A stretch of 64,000 bases of DNA, from assembly GCF_988243305.1 (NCBI RefSeq), contig NZ_OZ547136.1. The stretch is one strand, 5' to 3'. The first letter of the stretch is position 1. Each line of letters begins with the position of its first letter. A program made the position numbers and the translations under genes. Under the pieces are notes generated by a model. It was not told the origin of the DNA and did no database searches. It saw nothing but the letters and a program-made list of their open reading frames with translations. This document shows, piece by piece, positions 4,969 through 56,204 of this stretch.

Positions 4969-6990
4969 ATGAAAATGACACGGCTTTATCCTCTGGCCTT
5001 GGGGGGATTATTGCTCCCCGCCATTGCTAATGCCCAGACTTCACAGCAAGACGAAAGCACGCTGGTGGTTACCGCCAGTAAACAATCTTCCCGCTCGGCA
5101 TCAGCCAACAACGTCTCGTCTACTGTTGTCAGCGCGCCGGAATTAAGCGACGCCGGCGTCACCGCCAGCGACAAACTCCCCAGAGTCTTGCCCGGGCTCA
5201 ATATTGAAAATAGCGGCAACATGCTTTTTTCGACGATCTCGCTACGCGGCGTCTCTTCAGCGCAGGACTTCTATAACCCCGCCGTCACCCTGTATGTCGA
5301 TGGCGTCCCTCAGCTTTCCACCAACACCATCCAGGCGCTTACCGATGTGCAAAGCGTGGAGTTGCTGCGAGGCCCACAGGGAACGTTATATGGCAAAAGC
5401 GCTCAGGGCGGGATCATCAACATCGTCACCCAGCAGCCGGACAGCACGCCGCGCGGCTATATTGAAGGCGGCGTCAGTAGCCGCGACAGTTATCGAAGTA
5501 AGTTCAACCTGAGCGGCCCCATTCAGGATGGCCTGCTGTACGGCAGCGTCACCCTGTTACGCCAGGTTGATGACGGCGACATGATTAACCCCGCGACGGG
5601 AAGCGATGACTTAGGCGGCACCCGCGCCAGCATAGGGAATGTGAAACTGCGTCTGGCGCCGGACGATCAGCCCTGGGAAATGGGCTTTGCCGCCTCACGC
5701 GAATGTACCCGCGCCACCCAGGACGCCTATGTGGGATGGAATGATATTAAGGGCCGTAAGCTGTCGATCAGCGATGGTTCACCAGACCCGTACATGCGGC
5801 GCTGCACTGACAGCCAGACCCTGAGTGGGAAATACACCACCGATGACTGGGTTTTCAACCTGATCAGCGCCTGGCAGCAGCAGCATTATTCGCGCACCTT
5901 CCCTTCCGGTTCGTTAATCGTCAATATGCCTCAGCGCTGGAATCAGGATGTGCAGGAGCTGCGCGCCGCAACCCTGGGCGATGCGCGTACCGTTGATATG
6001 GTGTTTGGGCTGTACCGGCAGAACACCCGCGAGAAGTTAAATTCAGCCTACGACATGCCGACAATGCCTTATTTAAGCAGTACCGGCTATACCACCGCTG
6101 AAACGCTGGCCGCATACAGTGACCTGACCTGGCATTTAACCGATCGTTTTGATATCGGCGGCGGCGTGCGCTTCTCGCATGATAAATCCAGTACACAATA
6201 TCACGGCAGCATGCTCGGCAACCCGTTTGGCGACCAGGGTAAGAGCAATGACGATCAGGTGCTCGGGCAGCTATCCGCAGGCTATATGCTGACCGATGAC
6301 TGGAGAGTGTATACCCGTGTAGCCCAGGGATATAAACCTTCCGGGTACAACATCGTGCCTACTGCGGGTCTTGATGCCAAACCGTTCGTCGCCGAGAAAT
6401 CCATCAACTATGAACTTGGCACCCGCTACGAAACCGCTGACGTCACGCTGCAAGCCGCGACGTTTTATACCCACACCAAAGACATGCAGCTTTACTCTGG
6501 CCCGGTCGAGATGCAGACATTAAGCAATGCGGGTAAAGCCGACGCCACCGGCGTTGAGCTTGAAGCGAAGTGGCGGTTTGCGCCAGGCTGGTCATGGGAT
6601 ATCAATGGCAACGTGATCCGTTCCGAATTCACCAATGACAGTGAGTTGTATCACGGTAACCGGGTGCCGTTCGTACCACGTTATGGCGCGGGAAGCAGCG
6701 TGAACGGCGTGATTGATACGCGCTATGGCGCACTGATGCCCCGACTGGCGGTTAATCTGGTCGGGCCGCATTATTTCGATGGCGACAACCAGTTGCGGCA
6801 AGGCACCTATGCCACCCTGGACAGCAGCCTGGGCTGGCAGGCGACTGAACGGATGAACATTTCCGTCTATGTCGATAACCTGTTCGACCGTCGTTACCGT
6901 ACCTATGGCTACATGAACGGCAGCAGCGCCGTCGCGCAGGTCAATATGGGTCGCACCGTCGGTATCAATACGCGAATTGATTTCTTCTGA
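4969..6990 (+). CDS. fyuA: TonB-dependent yersiniabactin/pesticin outer-membrane receptor FyuA (673 aa)
   Basis: Signal peptide, TonB-box region and C-terminal beta-barrel ending in aromatic residue F; 673 aa as expected. Confidence 0.9.
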   Translation: MKMTRLYPLALGGLLLPAIANAQTSQQDESTLVVTASKQSSRSASANNVSSTVVSAPELSDAGVTASDKLPRVLPGLNIENSGNMLFSTISLRGVSSAQDFYNPAVTLYVDGVPQLSTNTIQALTDVQSVELLRGPQGTLYGKSAQGGIINIVTQQPDSTPRGYIEGGVSSRDSYRSKFNLSGPIQDGLLYGSVTLLRQVDDGDMINPATGSDDLGGTRASIGNVKLRLAPDDQPWEMGFAASRECTRATQDAYVGWNDIKGRKLSISDGSPDPYMRRCTDSQTLSGKYTTDDWVFNLISAWQQQHYSRTFPSGSLIVNMPQRWNQDVQELRAATLGDARTVDMVFGLYRQNTREKLNSAYDMPTMPYLSSTGYTTAETLAAYSDLTWHLTDRFDIGGGVRFSHDKSSTQYHGSMLGNPFGDQGKSNDDQVLGQLSAGYMLTDDWRVYTRVAQGYKPSGYNIVPTAGLDAKPFVAEKSINYELGTRYETADVTLQAATFYTHTKDMQLYSGPVEMQTLSNAGKADATGVELEAKWRFAPGWSWDINGNVIRSEFTNDSELYHGNRVPFVPRYGAGSSVNGVIDTRYGALMPRLAVNLVGPHYFDGDNQLRQGTYATLDSSLGWQATERMNISVYVDNLFDRRYRTYGYMNGSSAVAQVNMGRTVGINTRIDFF

Positions 6991-24101: not shown

Positions 24102-25307
24102 ACCGACTCCTGATTCAAATGTATGATGGTATTCATTGAACAGAACAATGGATCCCCCACCGTTGCTGACCGCAAAACATTTACGCGATTAATACTGCGC
24201 GTAATATAATTAAAAATCCAGCATTCTCAATCCATTACGAAATAAGATGGCATTACGGAATAGCCAGACTTTCTCGTGTTAACGTCCGACAAAATGCGTC
24301 ATTGACAGCGGTTTCTGTGGATTGACACATTTCATTCAGATAATGAATTAATGCTACTGCCGGACCAACCAGCAAACGGGCATTGTGTTCTGAAATCCAG
24401 GCTATTGATTCAACGTCAGCGACAGATCTGCGCTGTAAAAGAACTTGTAAAACAACGCAATAGAATTATCCGGAATGGTGGCGACTATGCACTAGAACAC
24501 CACAATTTCGCTCTCTCGGTAAGGCACTGTCACAGCATTCAACAGAATGTGACTTGCCAGATTTATTAGCGCCACCAGATGTTTAACCGGGTAACCACGA
24601 CCCAGTCGGGGATATATTCCATCTTCTCGCTGACATCATCAAGAATAAAAAGGTTTATCACACTCAGAGCAACGTTCTTCAGCAGGCGGGATAATTCTTC
24701 AACATTTAGAAGATGTGTTATTAAAGGCATACAAACTGGACGTATTGTATTTTCTTTTGGTGGTTGACCTAAGGTAGCAGTTTATCCTGATGCGCTGAGA
24801 TTTCTGTAATATCTACGTCAACATTCTCCTCGAATAGAAAATGCAGCCCCGGCAAGTGATTCACATTTTTTAACAAAACGTTGTTAGCGTGCCATTTTCA
24901 GAAGCTCTCCAAGAAAGCGAATTCTTTTCTCAAATTCTGCATTCTCAGACACAGCTTTCTACTCCATGGCAATGGCCCAAATACGAAGTTGCTCAGGATC
25001 ATTAGTGGTGCTGAGAAGTTAAATAACCATGCGGAGTACCACTCGTCATCACGTATTTATATATCATGAAGCTATTGTTGTGTTTTGTACATCAGTAGAT
25101 ATATTCTGATATACTCCTTTTGCTAGACATAACCTTTCACCTGCTTGCAAAGCTTCTGTGTTCTGACATTGCCAAATTGTTGCAATTCTGTATCCAGCCT
25201 TCTTTCAGTCATAGCTTCGGGCCGCGATAAGACTCACTGATCTGACCCTGATTCCTCTTGCAGACTTTATAGACCATTTAAAATGCAGTTTCGGTAATGA
25301 CTCCAAC

Positions 25308-25811
25308 TTATTGATAGTGTTTTATGTTCAGATAATGCCCGATGACTTTGTCATGCAGCTCCACCGATTTTGAGAACGACAGCGACTTCCGTCCCAGCCG
25401 TGCCAGGTGCTGCCTCAGATTCAGGTTATGCCGCTCAATTCGCTGCGTATATCGCTTGCTGATTACGTGCAGCTTTCCCTTCAGGCGGGATTCATACAGC
25501 GGCCAGCCATCCGTCATCCATATCACCACGTCAAAGGGTGACAGCAGGCTCATAAGACGCCCCAGCGTCGCCATAGTGCGTTCACCGAATACGTGCGCAA
25601 CAACCGTCTTCCGGAGACTGTCATACGCGTAAAACAGCCAGCGCTGGCGCGATTTAGCCCCGACATAGCCCCACTGTTCGTCCATTTCCGCGCAGACGAT
25701 GACGTCACTGCCCGGCTGTATGCGCGAGGTTACCGACTGCGGCCTGAGTTTTTTAAGTGACGTAAAATCGTGTTGAGGCCAACGCCCATAATGCGGGCAG
25801 TTACCCGGCAT
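25308..25811 (-). CDS. insB: IS1 InsB (made as InsAB' by -1 frameshift)
   Basis: 167-aa IS1 transposase frame overlapping insA 3' end. Confidence 0.85.
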
Positions 25812-26005
25812 CCAACGCCATTCATGGCCATATCAATGATTTTCTGGTGCGTACCGGGTTGAGAAGCGGTGTAAGTGAACTGCAGTTGCCATGTTTTACG
25901 GCAGTGAGAGCAGAGATAGCGCTGATGTCCGGCGGTGCTTTTGCCGTTACGCACCACCCCGTCAGTAGCTGAACAGGAGGGACAGCTGATAGAAACAGAA
26001 GCCAC
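25730..26005 (-). CDS. insA: IS1 InsA (91 aa)
   Basis: [42 protein letters not shown]. Confidence 0.9.
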
Positions 26006-26577: not shown

Positions 26578-26871
26578 GTGCCCATGAGCGGTAAGCGTTA
26601 TCCCGAAGAGTTTAAAACTGAAGCAGTCAAACAGGTTGTTGATCGCGGTTATTCTGTTGCCAGCGTTGCAACACGTCTCGATATCACCACCCACAGCCTT
26701 TATGCCTGGATAAAGAAGTACGGTCCGGATTCTTCCACTAATAAAGAACAGTCAGATGCTCAGGCCGAGATCCGCCGTCTCCAGAAAGAGCTGAAACGGG
26801 TTACCGACGAACGGGACATATTAAAAAAAGCCGCGCTCTTGATGTCAGACTCCCTGAACAGTTCTCGATAA
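26578..26871 (+). CDS. IS3-family transposase OrfA (HTH)
   Basis: [32 protein letters not shown]...; probable ATG at 26584. Confidence 0.8.
26824..26830 (+). promoter_or_regulatory. Programmed -1 ribosomal frameshift heptamer A-AAA-AAG (orfA to orfB)
   Basis: ATTAAAAAAAGCCGCGCTC at the orfA/orfB overlap, as in IS911. Confidence 0.55.
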
Positions 26872-26897
26872 TCGGGAAACTCAGGGCGCGTTATCCT

Positions 26898-27258
26898 GTG
26901 GCCACTCTCTGCCATGTGTTCGGGGTCCATCGCAGCAGCTACAAATACTGGAAAAACCGTCCTGAAAAGCCAGACGGCAGACGGGCTGTATTACGCAGCC
27001 AGGTACTTGAACTACATGGCATCAGCCACGGCTCTGCCGGAGCAAGAAGCATCGCCACAATGGCAACCCAGAGAGACTACCAGATGGGGCGCTGGCTTGC
27101 TGGCAGACTCATGAAAGAGCTGGGGCTGGTCAGCTGTCAGCAGCCGACTTACCGGTATAAACGTGGTGGTCATGAACATGTTGCTATCCCTAACTACCTT
27201 GAACGGCAGTTCGCCGTGACCGAGCCAAATCAGGTGTGGTGCGGTGATGTGACCTATA
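26898..27258 (+). pseudogene. IS3-family transposase OrfB, 5' exon (interrupted by intron)
   Basis: ...[27 protein letters not shown] then frame diverges into intron. Confidence 0.7.
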
Positions 27259-29986
<2,728 letters not shown>

Positions 29987-45435: not shown

Positions 45436-45534
45436 ACGTCATTCATTTCACCCATCAGGCCGCGTCTTCTCCGGGAGACGTGGCTTTTTCATTTATTACA
45501 CCAGTAAATCTTAACCACCGATAAGGAGCAAATT

Positions 45535-46353
45535 ATGCGACTAGCCAGTCGTTTTGGTTATGCGAACCAGATACGCCGTGACCGTCCGCTGACACACGAA
45601 GAACTGATGCACTATGTGCCGGGGATTTTCGGGGAAGATAAACACACGTCCCGAAGCCAGAACTATACGTACATCCCCACCATCACCGTACTGGAAAGCC
45701 TGCAGCGGGAAGGCTTTCAGCCATTCTTCGCCTGCCAGACCCGTGTGCGCGACCCGGGCCGCCGGGGATACACAAAACACATGCTGCGTCTGCGGCGGGC
45801 CGGAGAGATAAACGGAGAACATGTCCCTGAAATTATTCTGCTCAACTCTCATGACGGTACCTCCAGCTACCAGATGCTGCCGGGGTACTTCAGGTTCGTC
45901 TGCCAGAACGGCTGCGTCTGTGGTCAGTCTCTGGGGGAAGTACGTGTTCCGCACCGGGGAAATGTGGTGGACAGAGTCATTGAAGGGGCTTACGAGGTGG
46001 TGGGCGTGTTTGACCGGATAGAGGAGAAGCGTGATGCCATGCAGTCGCTGGTCCTGCCGCCACCGGCACGCCAGGCGCTGGCACAGGCGGCGCTGACTTA
46101 CCGTTATGGTGACGAACATCAGCCCGTCACCACCGCCGACATTCTGACACCACGACGCCGGGAGGATTACGGTAAGGACCTGTGGAGTGCTTATCAGACC
46201 ATCCAGGAGAATATGCTGAAAGGCGGGATTTCCGGGCGCAGTGCCAGAGGAAAACGTATCCATACCCGGGCCATTCACAGCATTGATACCGACATTAAGC
46301 TCAACCGCGCATTGTGGGTGATGGCAGAAACGATGCTGGAGAGCCTGCGCTGA
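45535..46353 (+). CDS. DUF932-family protein (YfjQ/YafZ-like), 272 aa
   Basis: Conserved position upstream of the antirestriction gene in CP4-type islands. Confidence 0.5.
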   Translation: MRLASRFGYANQIRRDRPLTHEELMHYVPGIFGEDKHTSRSQNYTYIPTITVLESLQREGFQPFFACQTRVRDPGRRGYTKHMLRLRRAGEINGEHVPEIILLNSHDGTSSYQMLPGYFRFVCQNGCVCGQSLGEVRVPHRGNVVDRVIEGAYEVVGVFDRIEEKRDAMQSLVLPPPARQALAQAALTYRYGDEHQPVTTADILTPRRREDYGKDLWSAYQTIQENMLKGGISGRSARGKRIHTRAIHSIDTDIKLNRALWVMAETMLESLR

Positions 46354-46434
46354 TGCCGTTTCCCTGAGTGAGGGAATCATTCAGCTTTCGTTCCTGAAAA
46401 ACACACATTTATTTGTTATTTAAGGAGTTATCTC

Positions 46435-46914
46435 ATGAAGACCGTTTCTCAGAATACCCCCACAATTTATTCAGCTACAACACCAGAGAATAATCCGCCT
46501 CAGTTGGTTGCCAGCCTCGTCCCTGATGAACAGCGCATCAGCTTCTGGCCGCAGCATTTTGGCCTCATTCCACAGTGGGTGACCCTGGAGCCCCGTGTTT
46601 TCGGCTGGATGGACCGTCTGTGCGAAGACTACTGCGGGGGTATCTGGAATCTGTACACTCTGAACAACGGCGGGGCATTTATGGCCCCCGAACCGGATGA
46701 CGATGATGACGAAACATGGGTACTGTTCAATGCCATGAACGGCAACCGCGCTGAAATGAGCCCGGAAGCCGCCGGCATTGCTGCCTGTCTGATGACGTAC
46801 AGTCATCACGCCTGTCGTACGGAGTGTTATGCCATGACGGTCCACTATTACCGTCTGCGGGATTACGCCCTGCAGCATCCGGAATGCAGCGCCATTATGC
46901 GCATCATCGACTGA
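46435..46914 (+). CDS. Antirestriction protein (ArdB/KlcA family; YfjX/YafX-like)
   Basis: Acidic stretch PEPDDDDDETW; size ~159 aa; followed immediately by RadC-like gene. Confidence 0.65.
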   Translation: MKTVSQNTPTIYSATTPENNPPQLVASLVPDEQRISFWPQHFGLIPQWVTLEPRVFGWMDRLCEDYCGGIWNLYTLNNGGAFMAPEPDDDDDETWVLFNAMNGNRAEMSPEAAGIAACLMTYSHHACRTECYAMTVHYYRLRDYALQHPECSAIMRIID

Positions 46915-47406
46915 ATGGAGGCAGGGACAATGCAGCAGCTTTCCTTTCTGCCCGGAGAAATGACGCCCGGCGAGCGCAGTCTCATTCTGCGGGCTCTGAA
47001 AACCCTGGACCGCCATCTTCATGAACCCGGTGTGGCCTTCACCTCCACCCGTGCGGCACGGGAATGGCTGATTCTGAACATGGCGGGACTGGAGCGTGAA
47101 GAGTTCCGGGTGCTGTATCTGAATAACCAGAATCAGTTGATTGCCGGTGAAACCCTCTTCACCGGCACCATCAACCGCACGGAAGTCCATCCCCGGGAAG
47201 TGATTAAACGCGCCCTGTACCACAATGCCGCTGCCGTGGTGCTGGCGCACAATCACCCGTCCGGTGAAGTCACACCCAGTAAGGCAGACCGGCTTATCAC
47301 CGAACGTCTGGTACAGGCACTGGGTCTGGTGGATATCCGGGTGCCGGACCATCTGATAGTCGGTGGCAACCAGGTTTTCTCCTTTGCCGAACATGGTCTG
47401 CTTTAA
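46915..47406 (+). CDS. yeeS: RadC-like JAB/MPN-domain protein
   Basis: JAMM motif VVLAHNHPSGEVTPSKAD; start overlaps preceding stop. Confidence 0.7.
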   Translation: MEAGTMQQLSFLPGEMTPGERSLILRALKTLDRHLHEPGVAFTSTRAAREWLILNMAGLEREEFRVLYLNNQNQLIAGETLFTGTINRTEVHPREVIKRALYHNAAAVVLAHNHPSGEVTPSKADRLITERLVQALGLVDIRVPDHLIVGGNQVFSFAEHGLL

Positions 47407-47468
47407 CCCGTCACAACCACATCACACCTGTTTTCACTTTTATCTTCTGTCTTCAGAGGTATCCCATT

Positions 47469-47690
47469 ATGAAAATTATCACCCGTGGTGAAGCCATGCG
47501 TATTCACCAACAACATCCGACATCCCGTCTTTTCCCGTTCTGTACCGGCAAATACCGCTGGCACGGCAGCACTGAAGCGTATACCGGTCGTGAAGTGCAG
47601 GATATTCCCGGTGTGCTGGCCGTGTTTGCTGAACGTCGTAAGGACAGTTTTGGCCCGTATGTCCGGCTGATGAGCGTCACCCTGAACTGA
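47469..47690 (+). CDS. yeeT: YeeT-family protein (DUF987), 73 aa
   Basis: MKIITRGEAMRIHQQHPTSRLFPFCTGKYRWHGS...; precedes cbeA. Confidence 0.6.
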   Translation: MKIITRGEAMRIHQQHPTSRLFPFCTGKYRWHGSTEAYTGREVQDIPGVLAVFAERRKDSFGPYVRLMSVTLN

Positions 47691-47852
47691 TGTTCCGTCA
47701 CCCGGAAAACGAGTACGACTGGCTGAGCTCAGACGCCGCTGTGGATGAGGCCCTGCTCATAAACGAATACACCTTTACCGAAGGCGGTCTGCGCGCCGGC
47801 TGACCTGTCATCGTTAAACCATTCTTAACCGATTTTCTGTGAGGATTTTATC

Positions 47853-48221
47853 GTGTCAGACGCACTCTCCGGGATAACTCATCCCGACGACAATCACGAC
47901 CGCCCCTGGTGGGGGCTTCCCTGCACAGTGAGGCCCTGTTTCGGGGCACGTCTGGTGCAGGAGGGTAACCGCCTGCATTACCTTGCCGACCGCGCCGGTA
48001 TCAGAGGCCTGTTCAGCGATGCAGATGCGTACCACCTGGACCAGGCCTTTCCGCTGCTGATGAAACAACTGGAACTCATGCTCACCAGCGGTGAACTGAA
48101 TCCCCGCCATCAGCATACCGTCACGCTGTATGCAAAAGGTCTGACCTGCAAAGCTGACACTCTCGGTAGCGGTGGTTACGTTTATCTGGCTGTTTATCCG
48201 ACGCCCGAAACGAAAAAGTAA
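47853..48221 (+). CDS. cbeA: Type IV antitoxin CbeA (YeeU), 122 aa
   Basis: [49 protein letters not shown]. Confidence 0.8.
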
Positions 48222-48310
48222 ACCACCGGAATAACCTTCTGCTCCGGCCTGGTGCTTTCACCACGCCACTTTTCCATTTTTCATCTCTGCATATCAGGAA
48301 AACCTTCAGT

Positions 48311-48685
48311 ATGAAAACATTACCCGATACACACGTACGGGAGGCATCGAGCTGCCCGTCTCCCGTCACCATCTGGCAGACTCTGCTCTCCCGACTACTG
48401 GGCCAGCATTACGGCCTTACACTGAATGACACACCGTTCGCCGATGAACGTGTGATTGAGCAGCATATTGAGGCAGGCATTTCACTGTGTGATGCGGTGA
48501 ACTTTCTCGTGGAAAAATACGCGCTGGTGCGTACCGACCAGCCGGGATTCAGCGCCTGTACCCGCTCTCAGTTAATAAACAGTATTGATATCCTCCGGGC
48601 ACGCCGGGCAACCGGCCTGATGACCCGCGACAATTACAGAACGGTAAATAACATTACCCTGGGTAAGTATCCGGAGGCGAAATGA
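48311..48685 (+). CDS. cbtA: Type IV toxin CbtA (YeeV), 124 aa
   Basis: [49 protein letters not shown]. Confidence 0.8.
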
Positions 48686-48876
48686 TGACACTGGAAGCCG
48701 ACAGCGTTAACGTACAGGCGCTGGATATGGGGCACATTGTCGTTGACATTGATGGTGTTAATATCACTGAACTGATTAATAAGGCCGCTGAAAACGGTTA
48801 TTCACTCCGCGTGGTGGATGACCGTGACTCTACCGAAACACCGGCAACTTATGCCAGCCCTCACCAGTTGCTGTAA
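48682..48876 (+). CDS. yeeW: YeeW-like small protein (64 aa)
   Basis: Start overlaps cbtA stop; conserved position after toxin gene. Confidence 0.5.
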
Positions 48877-49316
48877 GACAATGCAGTGATACAGGGTATA
48901 GTGCCATTAACCACAGAAACAGCACTGTTGTCCTGTATTAAGCAGGCAAGAGAAGATGTCCTTACCCTGCGCCATCTGCAGCTTCTGCACCAGAACCGGT
49001 GAATCTCACTCAACAGGCTTCATTTCTCCTGACGCCAGCCTGAATACAGCTGGCGTTTTCATTTATAAACAGAAAGGAAAACCGATAATAATGGAATGGA
49101 CGCCCCGACCATGAAGCAACGGTAGGATATTACTGATAAACCTTCCAGTGGAGGTGCGTTATGGCCGTTTTAACGATTAGCATTGACCTGACAAAAAATG
49201 AATTCCAAATCCACGGTCTGGGTAGGAACAGAAAAATCTAAGCTCAGAAAACGGATTAAAGTAAGCGTCAACGGAGCACCGTATTGACGCTTATTTATTG
49301 GTGAGAACTACGTTCC

Positions 49317-49673
49317 ATGGCAGGAGTTCGTCAACACGGTTGGAGGGCCATTCCGGCAGTATGCTCAGAATATGGCGCAGATACGCTTCCGGATCGATAC
49401 CGTTCAGACGGCAGGTGCCTGCTTTTCTGGCAACAAGCAGGAATCTCAGCGCTGAAGCAGGAATTAGAGGTAAAAACGCCCTACCGGGCCATGAATCACC
49501 CGGTCATTGGAGTAGTAACCAAAGCAGATTTAGCCAGCATGGAACAAATATCTTTGGTGAAAAGTTGGTTACGGGAAGCTGGAGCGCACAACGTGTTAGT
49601 AACCAGTGCAGTTAATAACAATGGAGTTACAGAACTTTTTGCCTTGCTGCATACAGAAGAAGGCTGTTGTTAA
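49317..49673 (+). pseudogene. yoeF: EutP/PduV-family GTPase C-terminal fragment (yoeF-like remnant)
   Basis: ...VIGVVTKADLASMEQISLVKSWLREAGAHNVLVTSAVNNNGVTELFALL with no P-loop N-terminus. Confidence 0.5.
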
Positions 49674-49773
49674 TTTCGATTGGTTCTCGGATGAGAATGA
49701 TGACGGTGATACACAGATAAGAATCAATGAGCAATGAGGGTTGCCGGGCAACCCTCATTGAATAAAACGGGAA

Positions 49774-50103
49774 TTACTTCGCTTCGCCGTTTTTCATTTC
49801 GCCCATAGCTTTCAGCTTTTTGGAGATATCGCGGCGTTCTTTGGAGAGCTCGGCATTTTTGATGATGTAATCGTCAACGCGATCTTCATAGTCACCTTTC
49901 ATGCTGGCGATGATGCCCTGGATTGCTTCAACGCTCATCCCCGGCTTGATGTAATCGCTCAGGTTGTCCAGCAGCAGGACGCGCTTCTGGTTGTCACGGA
50001 TCTTTTTCTCAACGTCCTGAATTTCACGTTGCAGTTTGTTCTTACGACGGAACAGACGAACAAATTCCAGTACGTCCTGGAATGAAGGCTTGGTAGTTTC
50101 CAT
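49774..50103 (-). CDS. yeeX: UPF0265/DUF496 protein YeeX (109 aa)
   Basis: ATG at [30 protein letters not shown]; track ORF has upstream extension. Confidence 0.8.
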
Positions 50104-50779
50104 TTTTATACCCCTGATAATGTGAGAGTCGGATTCGTTTAAGCAACCGCTATTCGTTAGGGCCAACATTACTCATAGCTGCCGCAGATGACAATGCTTT
50201 TATCCCTTTTCACTATCATACCCTTTATCCTTGCTGAATCGAAGCAGCAGCAAGATGATTCTGAAGTTCAGGAATTATTTGCGCAAGGCCCGGCAAATCA
50301 GATTCGATAGCAACTCAAGCTGATGCGCCGTTTCCATGTTCAGCCACACATAACCATAGATTGGTGTTTCCACAACCTTCAGGTCATGGTGGTTATTGAG
50401 CAACTGACGCAGCTCTTCCACAGCATCGTTCAATTTTTCCGTATTGGCAAAAACCGGCTGCGGATTACCTTCGTACAGCGCATGAACAAGGCTCAGCAGT
50501 ATTTGCTGCATCATGTGCTGGGTATCACGAAGTTTTTGCGCGTTCAATAACACGAAATGGCTGGGGCGCGTGGCCCAGTATGCATTGATTTGCAACTCCA
50601 GCATACAAACCAGATTGCGGTTAATGGTCTGGATACCTTCATATATCGATTTTGGAATACGGGTTTCTTTGCTGGCGGGCGCAATCAGTCCACGCATTTT
50701 CACGGCATCGGTCAGGAGTTTTTGTAGATGGCTTTCCAGACGTGGGCGTTCGAGTAAGTTCGGTGAGAATGCAGATTGA

Positions 50780-50837
<58 letters not shown>

Positions 50838-50838
50838 G

Positions 50839-52061
<1,223 letters not shown>

Positions 52062-52809
52062 ACCCGATTATACTCGGTCAGACTTTTCGCCAGTTGAATG
52101 CGCCAGTGGATGAACGCCCGTTGTGGCCAGATACCGGTAAACAACATTGCCAGTAAAGAGCCGAGGATCACATCGCCGCTTCGCCATAACGCCGTATCAA
52201 TTTCACCTGTCGGGGAACCCACAACAATTGCCAGCGTCACCCCAATCAATAAACCTTGATACGGTTTCTTGCCCAGCGCCAGCCAACCGCAAAGGAACAT
52301 GGCCGCCGCGCACCAGACTAACATCAGCGGTAACGAGATTAACTCCAGTTGCAGAGCGATAAGACCTAAAATCGAACCCAACACCGTACCGCCAATACGC
52401 TCAAAGGCGCGAGGGACAACGTTACCCCAGAACGAGATTGGCCCCATAATCACCACCATGGTGACCAGCGGCCAGGTGCTTTCCGGGATAGTAAACAGGC
52501 GGATAATGAGAAAAGTGAGCAGGAATGCCAGCGCGACCCGAGTACCATGCACAATGCGGTAATGGCGGTATACCCGGATTTCAAACGGGCTTAATGACTT
52601 ATCGGCACGCACGCAGAAACTCCGTAATGAGATTAAAAGCGCTCATAACTCATCTGTCGGCCAGAAGGCGCGCCTCTGAATTATCCGACGGACAAACCGG
52701 GAACAGTGTAATTTCCCGGCAGGAGCGAAAAAATTGAAAGGCGCATCTTACTCTTTTCGCTTTCAAAAAAAAGAGTGGTCATCGCGTTAACACACCGCCC
52801 TGAGATGAA

Positions 52810-53283
52810 TTAGTGATGTTTTGGCTGCACCGCAACATACATTTCGATATCCCAGTACCCATCTTCCGCGCCATTGTTCAAATAAACCTCGAAGCAGGGC
52901 TTTGGTAACATTTCATAAGCACTGTCCTGCAAGAGACTATTAAAGAACTGATACCAGGGTTTAGCAAAATCATCACCGACTACACGAGCTACCGCCACCG
53001 CATACTGACCACCTGTAATTTCTGTCAGAATGACGCCCTCACTGTTTTCGGGAAGCGTAAAGTAACCCGGCACCGTCACGACGGTGTCGCAGCGTAATTT
53101 TTCGGCGGGTGTTTCATCCGGATTGTCGTAATAGACAGCAACCCACTCCTTCGGCACAATATTTTTGCTATCTACCCACATCATCAACTGCTCAAAGCCT
53201 TTCTTTACCGTCTGTTCCCACGGGCCAACGAGATGGAAACCTGCAACGGTACGTTTCTCTTCCTGCTTAATCTCGTAGTTCAT
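52810..53283 (-). CDS. sbmC: DNA gyrase inhibitor SbmC/GyrI (157 aa)
   Basis: [26 protein letters not shown]...; 157 aa. Confidence 0.9.
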
Positions 53284-53297
53284 GACGCCTCCATTGA

Positions 53298-53317
53298 TAC
53301 TGTTTTTATATACAGTA
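53298..53317. promoter_or_regulatory. LexA (SOS) box upstream of sbmC
   Basis: TACTGTTTTTATATACAGTA = CTGT-N8-ACAG palindrome ~15-35 nt upstream of sbmC start. Confidence 0.55.
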
Positions 53318-53401
53318 TAGTTGCAAAATTAAAACCACAAGGAATGAGTGTTGATTATGCGAGCAGACTCGCACTCCTGCCAGTCTGCTGCAAAAGAAAG
53401 G

Positions 53402-54574
53402 TCAGGCCTTATGGTGGAAATAATCACTCAGGCGAGAAAACATGCTGCCTTCCCCGACAGATTCCAGGGTAACCAGCGGCCAGTGCGCCACCTGTTTATC
53501 ACGGTCGTAAAGTTCAATTTCCCCTACCCGCTGATGGGCGCTAATTGGCGCGGTGAGTTCTTTACCATCAAGGGTATATTTGGCTTTGATATGTGGAATT
53601 TCGGCTTTCGGTAGCACCATCCAGAACTCTTGTTCCGTTCCCAGGTCGATATTTTCTTTATCGCCATACCAGATGCGTTCCGTTCCGACCTTTTTCCCAC
53701 GGTGCAAAATTTGCACCGTAGTAAAGTTTTGTTGCCCCCAACGCAGTAATTTTCTTGCCTCTTCCTCACGACCTTTTGCACTGTCAGCCCCCATTACCAC
53801 TGCAATGAGACGACGCTGCCCATCTACAGCCGAAGCAATGAGATTAAACCCGGCACCAGAAGTATGACCCGTTTTCAGGCCGTCAACATTCATGGTTTTA
53901 TCCCACAACAACCCGTTACGGTTTTGCTGGGTGATACCGTTCCAGGTGAGACTTTTCTCACTGTACATATGATAAAACTCGGGCTCGCCGTGGATGATAG
54001 CACGAGAAAGCACAGCTAAATCATAAGCCGAGCTATGCTGGCCAGGTGCATCCAGACCATGCACTGTTTCAAAATGCGTATCCTTGAGATGCAGCTTCTC
54101 GGCATAGTTGTTCATCATTTCAACAAACTGCCGTTGCCCACCGGCAATATAGTCAGCCAGAGCAACACAAGCGTCATTTCCGGAATCCACAATTAAACCA
54201 CGGCTTAAATCACGTACCGATACGCGATCGCCCTCTTTCAAAAACATCAGTGAAGAACCGACAAACACCGGATTATCTTTCGCCCACGCATCGCGCCCCA
54301 CGGTGACAATATCGTCTGGCGTAATGCGATGACTATCGATAGCGCGATCCACGACATAACCCGTCATCAGCTTTGTCAGGCTGGCGGGATTGCGCTGTTG
54401 ATGCTCATTACCCGCGGTGAGGATCTGACCGGTGGTGTAATCCATCAATACCCAGGACCCGGCATGAATCTCTGGAGGCTGAGGTGAAAAAGGAATGTTT
54501 TCCGCCGCAAAACCAGACGATAAGTTAAAAACGAACAAAGAAGCAGCAATAATAAGACGGCGTTTCAACAGCAA
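53402..54574 (-). CDS. dacD: D-alanyl-D-alanine carboxypeptidase DacD (PBP6b)
   Basis: Signal peptide; SxxK (ASLTKLMT), SGN and KTG motifs. Confidence 0.9.
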   Translation of the reverse strand: MLLKRRLIIAASLFVFNLSSGFAAENIPFSPQPPEIHAGSWVLMDYTTGQILTAGNEHQQRNPASLTKLMTGYVVDRAIDSHRITPDDIVTVGRDAWAKDNPVFVGSSLMFLKEGDRVSVRDLSRGLIVDSGNDACVALADYIAGGQRQFVEMMNNYAEKLHLKDTHFETVHGLDAPGQHSSAYDLAVLSRAIIHGEPEFYHMYSEKSLTWNGITQQNRNGLLWDKTMNVDGLKTGHTSGAGFNLIASAVDGQRRLIAVVMGADSAKGREEEARKLLRWGQQNFTTVQILHRGKKVGTERIWYGDKENIDLGTEQEFWMVLPKAEIPHIKAKYTLDGKELTAPISAHQRVGEIELYDRDKQVAHWPLVTLESVGEGSMFSRLSDYFHHKA

Positions 54575-54776
54575 CCCCTCAGGAGTTTCAAATAGCTGTT
54601 CTTTTTACGGAAATACTTATGAACTGGCTGGAATAAAGTGCAAGAAAATGTGACTACCCTCTCATTTTTATCTGACATGATCTGTTGCCACTCGCTGCCA
54701 AATTGTGGCGCTAAAGCTGATTAGCACGGTGATATTTGATACTCTGGCAGACAGCAGAAATAACGGATTTAACCTA

Positions 54777-56204
54777 ATGATGAATGACGGTAAGCAACAA
54801 TCTACCTTTTTGTTTCACGATTACGAAACCTTTGGCACGCACCCCGCGTTAGATCGCCCTGCACAGTTCGCAGCCATTCGCACCGATAGCGAATTCAATG
54901 TCATCGGCGAACCCGAAGTCTTTTACTGCAAGCCCGCTGATGACTATTTACCCCAGCCAGGAGCCGTATTAATTACCGGTATTACCCCGCAGGAAGCACG
55001 GGCGAAAGGAGAAAACGAAGCCGCGTTTGCCGCCCGTATTCACTCGCTTTTTACCGTACCGAAGACCTGTATTCTGGGCTACAACAATGTGCGTTTCGAC
55101 GACGAAGTCACACGCAACATTTTTTATCGTAATTTCTACGATCCTTACGCCTGGAGCTGGCAGCATGATAACTCGCGCTGGGATTTACTGGATGTTATGC
55201 GTGCCTGTTATGCCCTGCGCCCGGAAGGAATAAACTGGCCTGAAAATGATGACGGTCTACCGAGCTTTCGCCTTGAGCATTTAACCAAAGCGAATGGTAT
55301 TGAACATAGCAACGCCCACGATGCGATGGCTGATGTGTACGCCACTATTGCGATGGCAAAGCTGGTAAAAACGCGTCAGCCACGCCTGTTTGATTATCTC
55401 TTTACCCATCGTAATAAACACAAACTGATGGCGTTGATTGATGTTCCGCAGATGAAACCCCTGGTGCACGTTTCCGGAATGTTTGGAGCATGGCGCGGCA
55501 ATACCAGCTGGGTGGCACCGCTGGCGTGGCATCCTGAAAATCGCAATGCCGTAATTATGGTGGATTTGGCAGGAGACATTTCGCCATTACTGGAACTGGA
55601 TAGCGACACATTGCGCGAGCGTTTATATACCGCAAAAACCGATCTTGGCGATAACGCCGCCGTTCCGGTTAAGCTGGTGCATATCAATAAATGTCCGGTG
55701 CTGGCCCAGGCGAATACGCTACGCCCGGAAGATGCCGACCGACTGGGAATTAATCGTCAGCATTGCCTCGATAACCTGAAAATTCTGCGTGAAAATCCGC
55801 AAGTGCGCGAAAAAGTGGTGGCGATATTCGCGGAAGCCGAACCGTTTACGCCTTCAGATAACGTGGATGCACAGCTTTATAACGGCTTTTTCAGTGACGC
55901 AGATCGTGCAGCAATGAAAATTGTGCTGGAAACCGAGCCGCGTAATTTACCGGCACTGGATATCACTTTTGTTGATAAACGGATTGAAAAGCTGTTGTTC
56001 AATTATCGGGCACGCAACTTCCCGGGGACGCTGGATTATGCCGAGCAGCAACGCTGGCTGGAGCACCGTCGCCAGGTCTTCACGCCAGAGTTTTTGCAGG
56101 GTTATGCTGATGAATTGCAGATGCTGGTACAACAATATGCCGATGACAAAGAGAAAGTGGCGCTGTTAAAAGCACTTTGGCAGTACGCGGAAGAGATTGT
56201 CTAA
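54777..56204 (+). CDS. sbcB: Exodeoxyribonuclease I SbcB (475 aa)
   Basis: ATG at MMNDGKQQSTFLFHDYETFGTHPALDRPAQFA; track ORF has 24-codon upstream extension. Confidence 0.9.
   Translation: MMNDGKQQSTFLFHDYETFGTHPALDRPAQFAAIRTDSEFNVIGEPEVFYCKPADDYLPQPGAVLITGITPQEARAKGENEAAFAARIHSLFTVPKTCILGYNNVRFDDEVTRNIFYRNFYDPYAWSWQHDNSRWDLLDVMRACYALRPEGINWPENDDGLPSFRLEHLTKANGIEHSNAHDAMADVYATIAMAKLVKTRQPRLFDYLFTHRNKHKLMALIDVPQMKPLVHVSGMFGAWRGNTSWVAPLAWHPENRNAVIMVDLAGDISPLLELDSDTLRERLYTAKTDLGDNAAVPVKLVHINKCPVLAQANTLRPEDADRLGINRQHCLDNLKILRENPQVREKVVAIFAEAEPFTPSDNVDAQLYNGFFSDADRAAMKIVLETEPRNLPALDITFVDKRIEKLLFNYRARNFPGTLDYAEQQRWLEHRRQVFTPEFLQGYADELQMLVQQYADDKEKVALLKALWQYAEEIV

Follow-up and report, generated by a model that had tools for sequence, protein, structure and literature searches.

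Composition and probable origin of the right edge of a CP4-44-type island beside tmaR in Escherichia coli

Where does a CP4-44-type island of E. coli end and the core chromosome resume between yeeW and tmaR (yeeX), and to which of the two do the small frames left between these genes belong? The locus lies in a stretch of 64,000 nucleotides of contig NZ_OZ547136.1 (assembly GCF_988243305.1), referred to here as the window, whose positions are used throughout. A preliminary description had assigned both a decayed IS110-type transposase start and an EutP/PduV fragment to the island, as its distal end. Our analysis instead indicates that positions 48877-49700 are, with high probability, non-functional debris left by successive insertion-sequence (IS) insertions and deletions at the right edge of the island. 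The stretch is ordinary mobile-element wreckage, almost wholly covered by existing K-12 annotation: over 48877-49700 it is 100% identical to E. coli K-12 MG1655, yoeF included, and it shares with the right end of K-12 CP4-44 (yeeW-yoeD (b4642)-yoeF (b4538)-tmaR/yeeX) the same pseudogenes and the same curated border. PGAP calls three features in this interval: part of DUF957, a pseudogene on the minus strand named 'transposase domain-containing', and an EutP/PduV family protein of 60 aa. Two pieces had been missed in the preliminary description, namely an IS66 end fragment (49261-49419, minus strand) and a DUF4942 remnant (49420-49490). Segment by segment, positions 48877-49773 and the adjoining core gene read as follows.

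48910-49002, plus strand: 3' fragment of the island gene DUF957, 'missing N-terminus' in the K-12 PGAP annotation
49003-49089, plus strand: DUF957-DUF4942 intergenic spacer of the island, its 3' end being the 'AT' of the DUF4942 start codon
49090-49260, plus strand: first 171 bp of a decayed IS110-family element, collinear with L003 4551-4721
49161-49241, plus strand: 26-codon open reading frame (ORF), N-terminus of a dead IS110-family transposase by pairwise match to WP_001101446.1
49261-49419, minus strand: terminal 159 bp of an IS66-family (ISEc23-like) element, by Pfam, DNA identity and a junction at the inverted repeat
49291-49419, minus strand: K-12 pseudogene yoeD (b4642), the last 43 TnpC codons plus stop, from the K-12 record
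49420-49490, plus strand: DUF4942 remnant of 71 bp, about codons 38-61, collinear with L003 6033-6103
49491-49673, plus strand: pduV codons 88-147 plus stop, a chromosomal 3' relic, by DNA and protein identity, synteny and Pfam
49317-49673, plus strand: K-12 yoeF (b4538), a chimeric ORF of 118 codons, from K-12 coordinates and the segment map
49732-49760, no strand: GC-rich inverted repeat (gagggttgccgggcaaccctc) lying where the pduV relic and tmaR converge, found as a reverse-strand self-match
49774-50103, minus strand: tmaR (yeeX), the first intact core gene rightward, from K-12 annotation

The IS110-family stub and its insertion site

The short frame preceded by a ribosome-binding site that had been reported at 49161-49241 (MAVLTISIDLTKNEFQIHGLGRNRKI) is present, with GGAGG located 6 nt 5' of its ATG. 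IS110-family elements encode a DEDD transposase with the domains PF01548 and PF02371, and terminal inverted repeats are not expected of them. As reference for the pairwise tests we used WP_001101446.1 (locus L007), an intact transposase of this family carried by E. coli plasmids that itself passes both Pfam domains. The proposed resemblance of the frame to an IS110-family N-terminus is borne out by identity at 15 of 25 positions (E = 8e-6) and by collinearity: its score of 70 was reached by none of 20,000 shuffles (mean 17.7, maximum 43), which amounts to significant similarity to a transposase N-terminus. When residues 1-34 of the reference were searched against the six frames of the 64-kb window, this frame ranked first and the runner-up had E = 0.43. 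The I-x-I-D-L-x-K motif is kept in the 26 codons, including the first catalytic Asp, although it reads ISID in the relic rather than the IGID of the family.

Pfam searches with the 26-aa and 33-aa peptides alone gave no match at E <= 1. Peptides of this length are too short for profile classification, and collinearity was therefore used together with the pairwise test; of the two, we regard collinearity as the decisive evidence for the IS110 identity of the frame. Positions 48559-49260 align, at 95% over a 714-bp block (L003 4008-4721), with the region leading into, and including the start of, an 'IS110 family transposase' pseudogene of other strains, and identity to strains with that pseudogene rises to 99.5% over 49040-49260. 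In Ecol_AZ147 (locus L003) and OkiPb01676 (L004), PGAP annotates a pseudogene of 1029 bp, 'IS110 family (RNA-guided) transposase', that begins at the same ATG as the 49161 frame. By tblastn the L003 pseudogene matches residues 1-333 of WP_001101446.1 in three segments and frames with many stops (E = 2e-69). The long relic is thus collinear with a genuine family member over the full length; it is about 50% identical in amino acids to the reference across the whole transposase and keeps IxIDLxK. Transposase_20 (PF02371) is recognized in the long relic at 42.5 bits (cut-off 21.3, E = 8.7e-11), in the part deleted from the window, and the reconstructed N-terminal half scores 28.0 bits for PF01548 against a cut-off of 29 (E = 2e-6).

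It had also been stated that the resemblance ends where the frame terminates. The frame does stop at 49241, but the homology runs on: the stop codon (49239-49241) comes after a frameshift near 49234 that is common to the window and the long relic, and beyond it the similarity continues in another frame (…KSKLRKRIK) up to 49260. The window thus retains the 71-bp left end of the element and about 33 transposase codons, 171 bp in all, and even the long form is riddled with stops.

With regard to the insertion site, the right end of an intact paralogous island (L008) reads …cbtA – DUF5983 – DUF957 – DUF4942 – parDE – integrase fragment. Positions 48905-48927 and 48920-49089 of the window align to L008 2727-2749 and 2835-3003, respectively, the DUF957 fragment having an internal deletion of 85 bp relative to the intact copy. 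The second block is 81.8% identical and reaches the DUF4942 coding sequence, which starts at L008 3002; on the far side of the element, L003 5920-6111 aligns to L008 from 'TATG' onward. Since 48920-49089 ends at the 'AT' of DUF4942 and L003 resumes at 'TATG', the element went in exactly at the start codon of DUF4942. Unoccupied, the site reads cgattATGtct in L008, and occupied it reads ...gataAT[element]TATGtc, with a short core repeat at both junctions; like members of the IS110 family, the relic has no terminal inverted repeats and a flanking repeat of 2-3 bp. The whole relic spans L003 4551-5919 (1369 bp), ends that rest on the paralogous island, about 80% identical, and are good to a few bases only. 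A search for a second copy of the relic at another locus found none, the candidate H110 being the same locus with an IS100 insertion.

In the long relic, L003 5651-5919 is a non-coding right end of 269 bp, the part in which a guide (bridge/seek) RNA of the IS1111 type would be expected; it is present in long-form strains only and deleted from the window. An Rfam scan of 46000-54000 at E <= 1 gave no match and did not flag the live IS621 there either. That element, 1.1 kb away, belongs to a different IS110 subgroup and is not the same element as the dead relic. It is named IS621 by PGAP and is complete (1276 bp, 50784-52059), with an intact transposase ORF on the minus strand (50888-51868, 326 aa) that passes both IS110-family Pfam domains; it interrupts yeeA relative to K-12, and many further E. 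coli genomes carry the identical insertion.

The IS66 tail and yoeD

The window and L003 are collinear on both sides of a replaced segment: 48559-49260 corresponds to L003 4008-4721 and 49420-50500 to L003 6033-7113, with 159 bp between them in the window vs 1311 bp in L003. The 159 bp begin exactly at a terminal inverted repeat, GTAAGCG... (GTAAGCGTCAACGG...), at base 49261, and the sequence from there (GTAAGCGTCAACGGA) is identical to the end of ISEc23 in locus L009. The piece is 99.4% identical to plasmid copies of IS66-family elements and 96-97% to ISEc23, and it contains DDE_Tnp_IS66_C (PF13817) at 59.2 bits (cut-off 30, E = 4.6e-16). Compared with ISEc23 / IS682 (tnpA-tnpB-tnpC), the last 159 bp are 96-99% identical, GTAAGCG repeat and TnpC C-terminal domain included, whereas tnpA, tnpB, the catalytic domain and the second inverted repeat are missing from the piece; with one end and neither the full gene set nor the second end, this is a fragment and not an element. 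It follows that yoeD (b4642), for which the preliminary description had implicitly taken the IS110 stub, corresponds to the C-terminal end of an IS66-family transposase on the minus strand.

An IS66 insertion followed by a deletion is the simplest reading of this structure. Among the strains searched for a complete IS66 at 49260/49261, none was found; H161, which came closest, carries an unrelated ISEc23 within a prophage.

The DUF4942 remnant at 49420-49490 is too short to score alone, and its identity comes from collinearity with L003 (98.2% over a block of 1081 bp), where the ORF 5921-6103, of 61 codons, is 61% identical to the DUF4942 N-terminus (E = 1e-17). Up to this point the window keeps the order of CP4-type right modules, yeeS-yeeT-cbeA-cbtA-DUF5983(yeeW)-DUF957-DUF4942, in reduced form: the yeeW frame has 64 aa vs 162 aa for DUF5983 in L008, DUF957 is internally deleted and DUF4942 is cut down to 71 bp.

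The pduV relic and the border of the island

The fragment described as a P-loop-less, yoeF-like EutP/PduV piece is indeed identical to K-12 yoeF and matches PF10662 at 49.2 bits (cut-off 21, E = 6e-13), over profile positions 86-142 of 143 only, with the P-loop outside. The RefSeq product name already says EutP/PduV for this piece. Its attribution to the island did not stand, as the piece is orthologous to an intact chromosomal pduV beside tmaR and persists in an island-free strain. In the pdu+ E. coli strains E2348/69 and RM9387, pduT-pduU-pduV come last and are convergent with tmaR. Alignment of the window with pdu+ DNA starts exactly at 49491, which is pduV codon 88, and continues at 98.3% over 710 bp; the 60 relic residues are 95% identical to residues 87-146 of the 147-aa PduV of E2348/69 (E = 3.7e-39). 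Intact PduV carries Walker A (GPSQCGKT, residues 8-15) and DTPGE (residues 42-46), both lost in the window, where codons 88-147 are kept. PduV is a small GTPase of the propanediol-utilisation (pdu) microcompartment operon. The relic shares with PduV of E2348/69 its position as the last gene, convergent with tmaR, but is devoid of codons 1-87 and hence of P-loop and switch regions, and what is left of it is joined to DUF4942 and antisense IS66 sequence. Its location in a microcompartment operon holds by orthology only, the pdu operon being absent from the window.

The pduV relic together with tmaR is found, in single copy, in 5417 of the 5426 complete E. coli genomes. The GC-rich inverted repeat at 49732-49760, which pdu+ strains have too, is probably the native terminator, acting in both directions; a consensus terminator scan of 48800-49800 called none, though two hairpins are visible by eye. 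In CUVET21-1780 (L014) and in L005/L006, which are pdu+, cbiA-P are missing and the cobalamin riboswitch, pocR, pduF and the pdu operon are kept. The operon of these strains ends with pduV (147 aa), and neither pduW nor pduX precedes tmaR.

These data place the true border of the island at a deletion junction, 49490/49491, where DUF4942 codon 61 is fused in frame to pduV codon 88. In line with this, the last base of the CP4-44 feature in EcoCyc is equivalent to position 49490. The earlier claim that the island ends before yeeX/tmaR is thus correct, the last island-derived base being 49490 and tmaR starting (in window coordinates) at 49774. The claim that the decayed IS110 piece and the EutP/PduV fragment together mark its distal end is right for the IS110 stub and wrong for the EutP/PduV fragment; the last island DNA is the 71-bp DUF4942 remnant.

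Could both the stub and the EutP/PduV fragment nevertheless be island DNA and together form its decayed distal end? Both sit between yeeW, the last intact island gene, and tmaR, and one review places yoeF within the CP4-44 region (PMC11551758). However, in pdu+ strains an intact pduV, 98.3% identical from 49491 on, lies beside tmaR; the pduV relic is still found beside cobU in a strain without the island; and intact CP4-type islands end with DUF4942, without an EutP/PduV gene. We consider this reading highly unlikely.

An integration of the island into pduV by site-specific recombination, with 49490/49491 as an attachment-site junction and not a deletion scar, would agree with a junction that is sharp and common to most E. 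coli genomes. On the island side, however, the junction falls in the middle of a gene, at DUF4942 codon 61 of 288, and the intact island extends for about 1.5 kb beyond DUF4942, with ParDE genes and part of an integrase there. The native end of the island therefore cannot be 49490/49491, and we give such an integration almost no chance.

As for the other side of the island, the order to the left of pdu in pdu+ strains is cobUST – cbi remnant – cobalamin riboswitch – pocR – pduF…, and the core is common to these strains and the window until about 24397. The island and IS debris thus occupy the place of the segment from the riboswitch through pocR and pduF… to pduV codon 87. At the left edge (24102-24600) we observed cobU, followed by what is left of a 'cobalamin biosynthesis protein' gene (~24253-24396) and by part of an IS4-family transposase (~24405-24593); pdu+ strains cease to match near 24397, and the island with IS debris covers ~24398-49490. 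The left part of the island contains ORFs typical of IS1 (InsA/InsB-like, minus strand, 25308-26005) and IS3-family ORFs (26578-27323).

STEC308 (L010) is the strain without the island, in which the pduV relic lies 181 bp from cobU. In this strain (L010 3817-4010) the cbi remnant is joined to the pduV relic, from window position 24289 to ~49500-49504, with CCG microhomology, and the breakpoints lie 108 bp and 9-13 bp outside the island borders (~24397 and 49490). As they differ from those borders, STEC308 represents a separate deletion, from either an island-bearing or a pdu+ allele. Its use as an ancestral empty site was considered and rejected as unprovable, given that its breakpoints are not those of the island.

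The relation to K-12 is closest at the right end. Outside 48877-49700, MG1655 differs from the window: identity upstream is 97.7%, the window has IS621 inside yeeA, and the left part of the island is different. The value of 97.7% applies to the block with cbeA/cbtA/yeeW (47818-48876), and the yeeR region of K-12 has no megablast-level match in window positions 45000-56000. The blocks of 100% and 97.7%, together with the missing yeeR match, indicate that the island is a mosaic relative of CP4-44.

yoeF, allele variation and the order of events

Set against the segment map, yoeF is a chimera whose parts are antisense IS66 tnpC (49317-49419), what remains of DUF4942 (49420-49490) and the C-terminal end of PduV (49491-49673). 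The corresponding frame of L003 has 121 codons, DUF4942(1-61)::PduV(88-147). Among the papers listed by a literature search, none links yoeF or CP4-44 to pduV, and the passages on yoeF in the sources consulted are silent on the junction.

One may ask whether yoeF, or the 60-aa version that PGAP starts at the junction ATG, is an expressed and selected P-loop-less PduV C-terminal protein. The frame stays open across the junction in most E. coli, DUF4942 and pduV are joined in frame, and the frame is annotated as a CDS, not as a pseudogene, in NC_000913.3 and by PGAP as well. Yet its N-terminal part is entirely different from allele to allele: it is DUF4942 in L003 and antisense IS66 in K-12, is shortened further by ISEc12 in L011, and is lacking from L012. 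No nucleotide-binding motif ahead of TKxD survives, and the substitutions among shortened alleles are mostly non-synonymous (e.g., 0 synonymous/6 non-synonymous for L003 vs L004), in counts too small for a test. A dN/dS estimate on the 60-codon pduV relic had 2-6 differences per pair to work with, too few to separate relaxed from purifying selection. Taken together, the variable N-terminus, the lost nucleotide-binding motifs and the mostly non-synonymous differences, small as their numbers are, point to yoeF as a scar; a selected product appears very improbable. We see an equally slim prospect that the DUF4942::PduV frame (yoeF) would be a translated small protein with some PduV C-terminal activity where microcompartments are absent. 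The 26-codon ORF, yoeD and yoeF would all be by-products of joins and not working genes, and a functional role for any piece of 48877-49700 is not likely.

Of the 5426 complete genomes, 3164 carry the K-12-type allele of 824 bp at a coverage of at least 80%, and 655 the long IS110 relic. To look at the junction, we drew an evenly spaced sample of 40 matches to 49420-49780, from which frequencies are rough: the DUF4942 piece was present in 30, six began exactly at 49491 (the two of these that were checked were both pdu+), three had other breakpoints and in one the relic was missing. The relic is shortened further by ISEc12 in L011 (1505-3807) and removed by IS1 in L012 (3248-3945), and the DUF4942 remnant carries IS100 in L004 (5988-7789) and L015 (4429-6230). 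The island/pduV junction is a repeated target or a tolerated dump for insertion sequences.

The individual insertions and deletions are seen in the alignments described above; the order in which we place them is one that we infer. An IS110-family element of about 1.37 kb would first have entered DUF4942, last in the gene order of the island, exactly at its start codon, with a 2-3 bp AT/TAT repeat on both sides, and would then have decayed through many stops and frameshifts. A deletion may subsequently have fused DUF4942 codon 61 in frame to pduV codon 88, creating the 49490/49491 border at the cost of the remainder of DUF4942, the former terminus of the island and all DNA from there to the middle of pduV. 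In the K-12-type lineage, which includes the window, an ISEc23-like IS66 element would have been inserted into codon ~33 of the dead IS110 transposase, and a further deletion could have left its last 159 bp while removing the 1311 bp that comprise IS110 relic and the first 37 DUF4942 codons.

What is new here is small: the IS110 relic, 171 bp of a dead element that K-12 gains as one feature previously unannotated, the 26-codon frame having no annotation in either of the two K-12 records examined (PGAP, NC_000913.3); the chimeric make-up of yoeF; and its placement outside the island. The island/chromosome border is fixed to a single phosphodiester bond, 49490/49491; yoeF is a relic of a lost pdu operon fused to island and IS debris, not prophage cargo; and yoeD is an IS66 tail, not an IS110 stub. 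These assignments are of use for pseudogene annotation and for the 'y-ome' lists in which yoeF still appears among uncharacterised prophage genes. Of little importance beyond bookkeeping, the locus offers a worked example of an island edge eroded by IS insertions and deletions.
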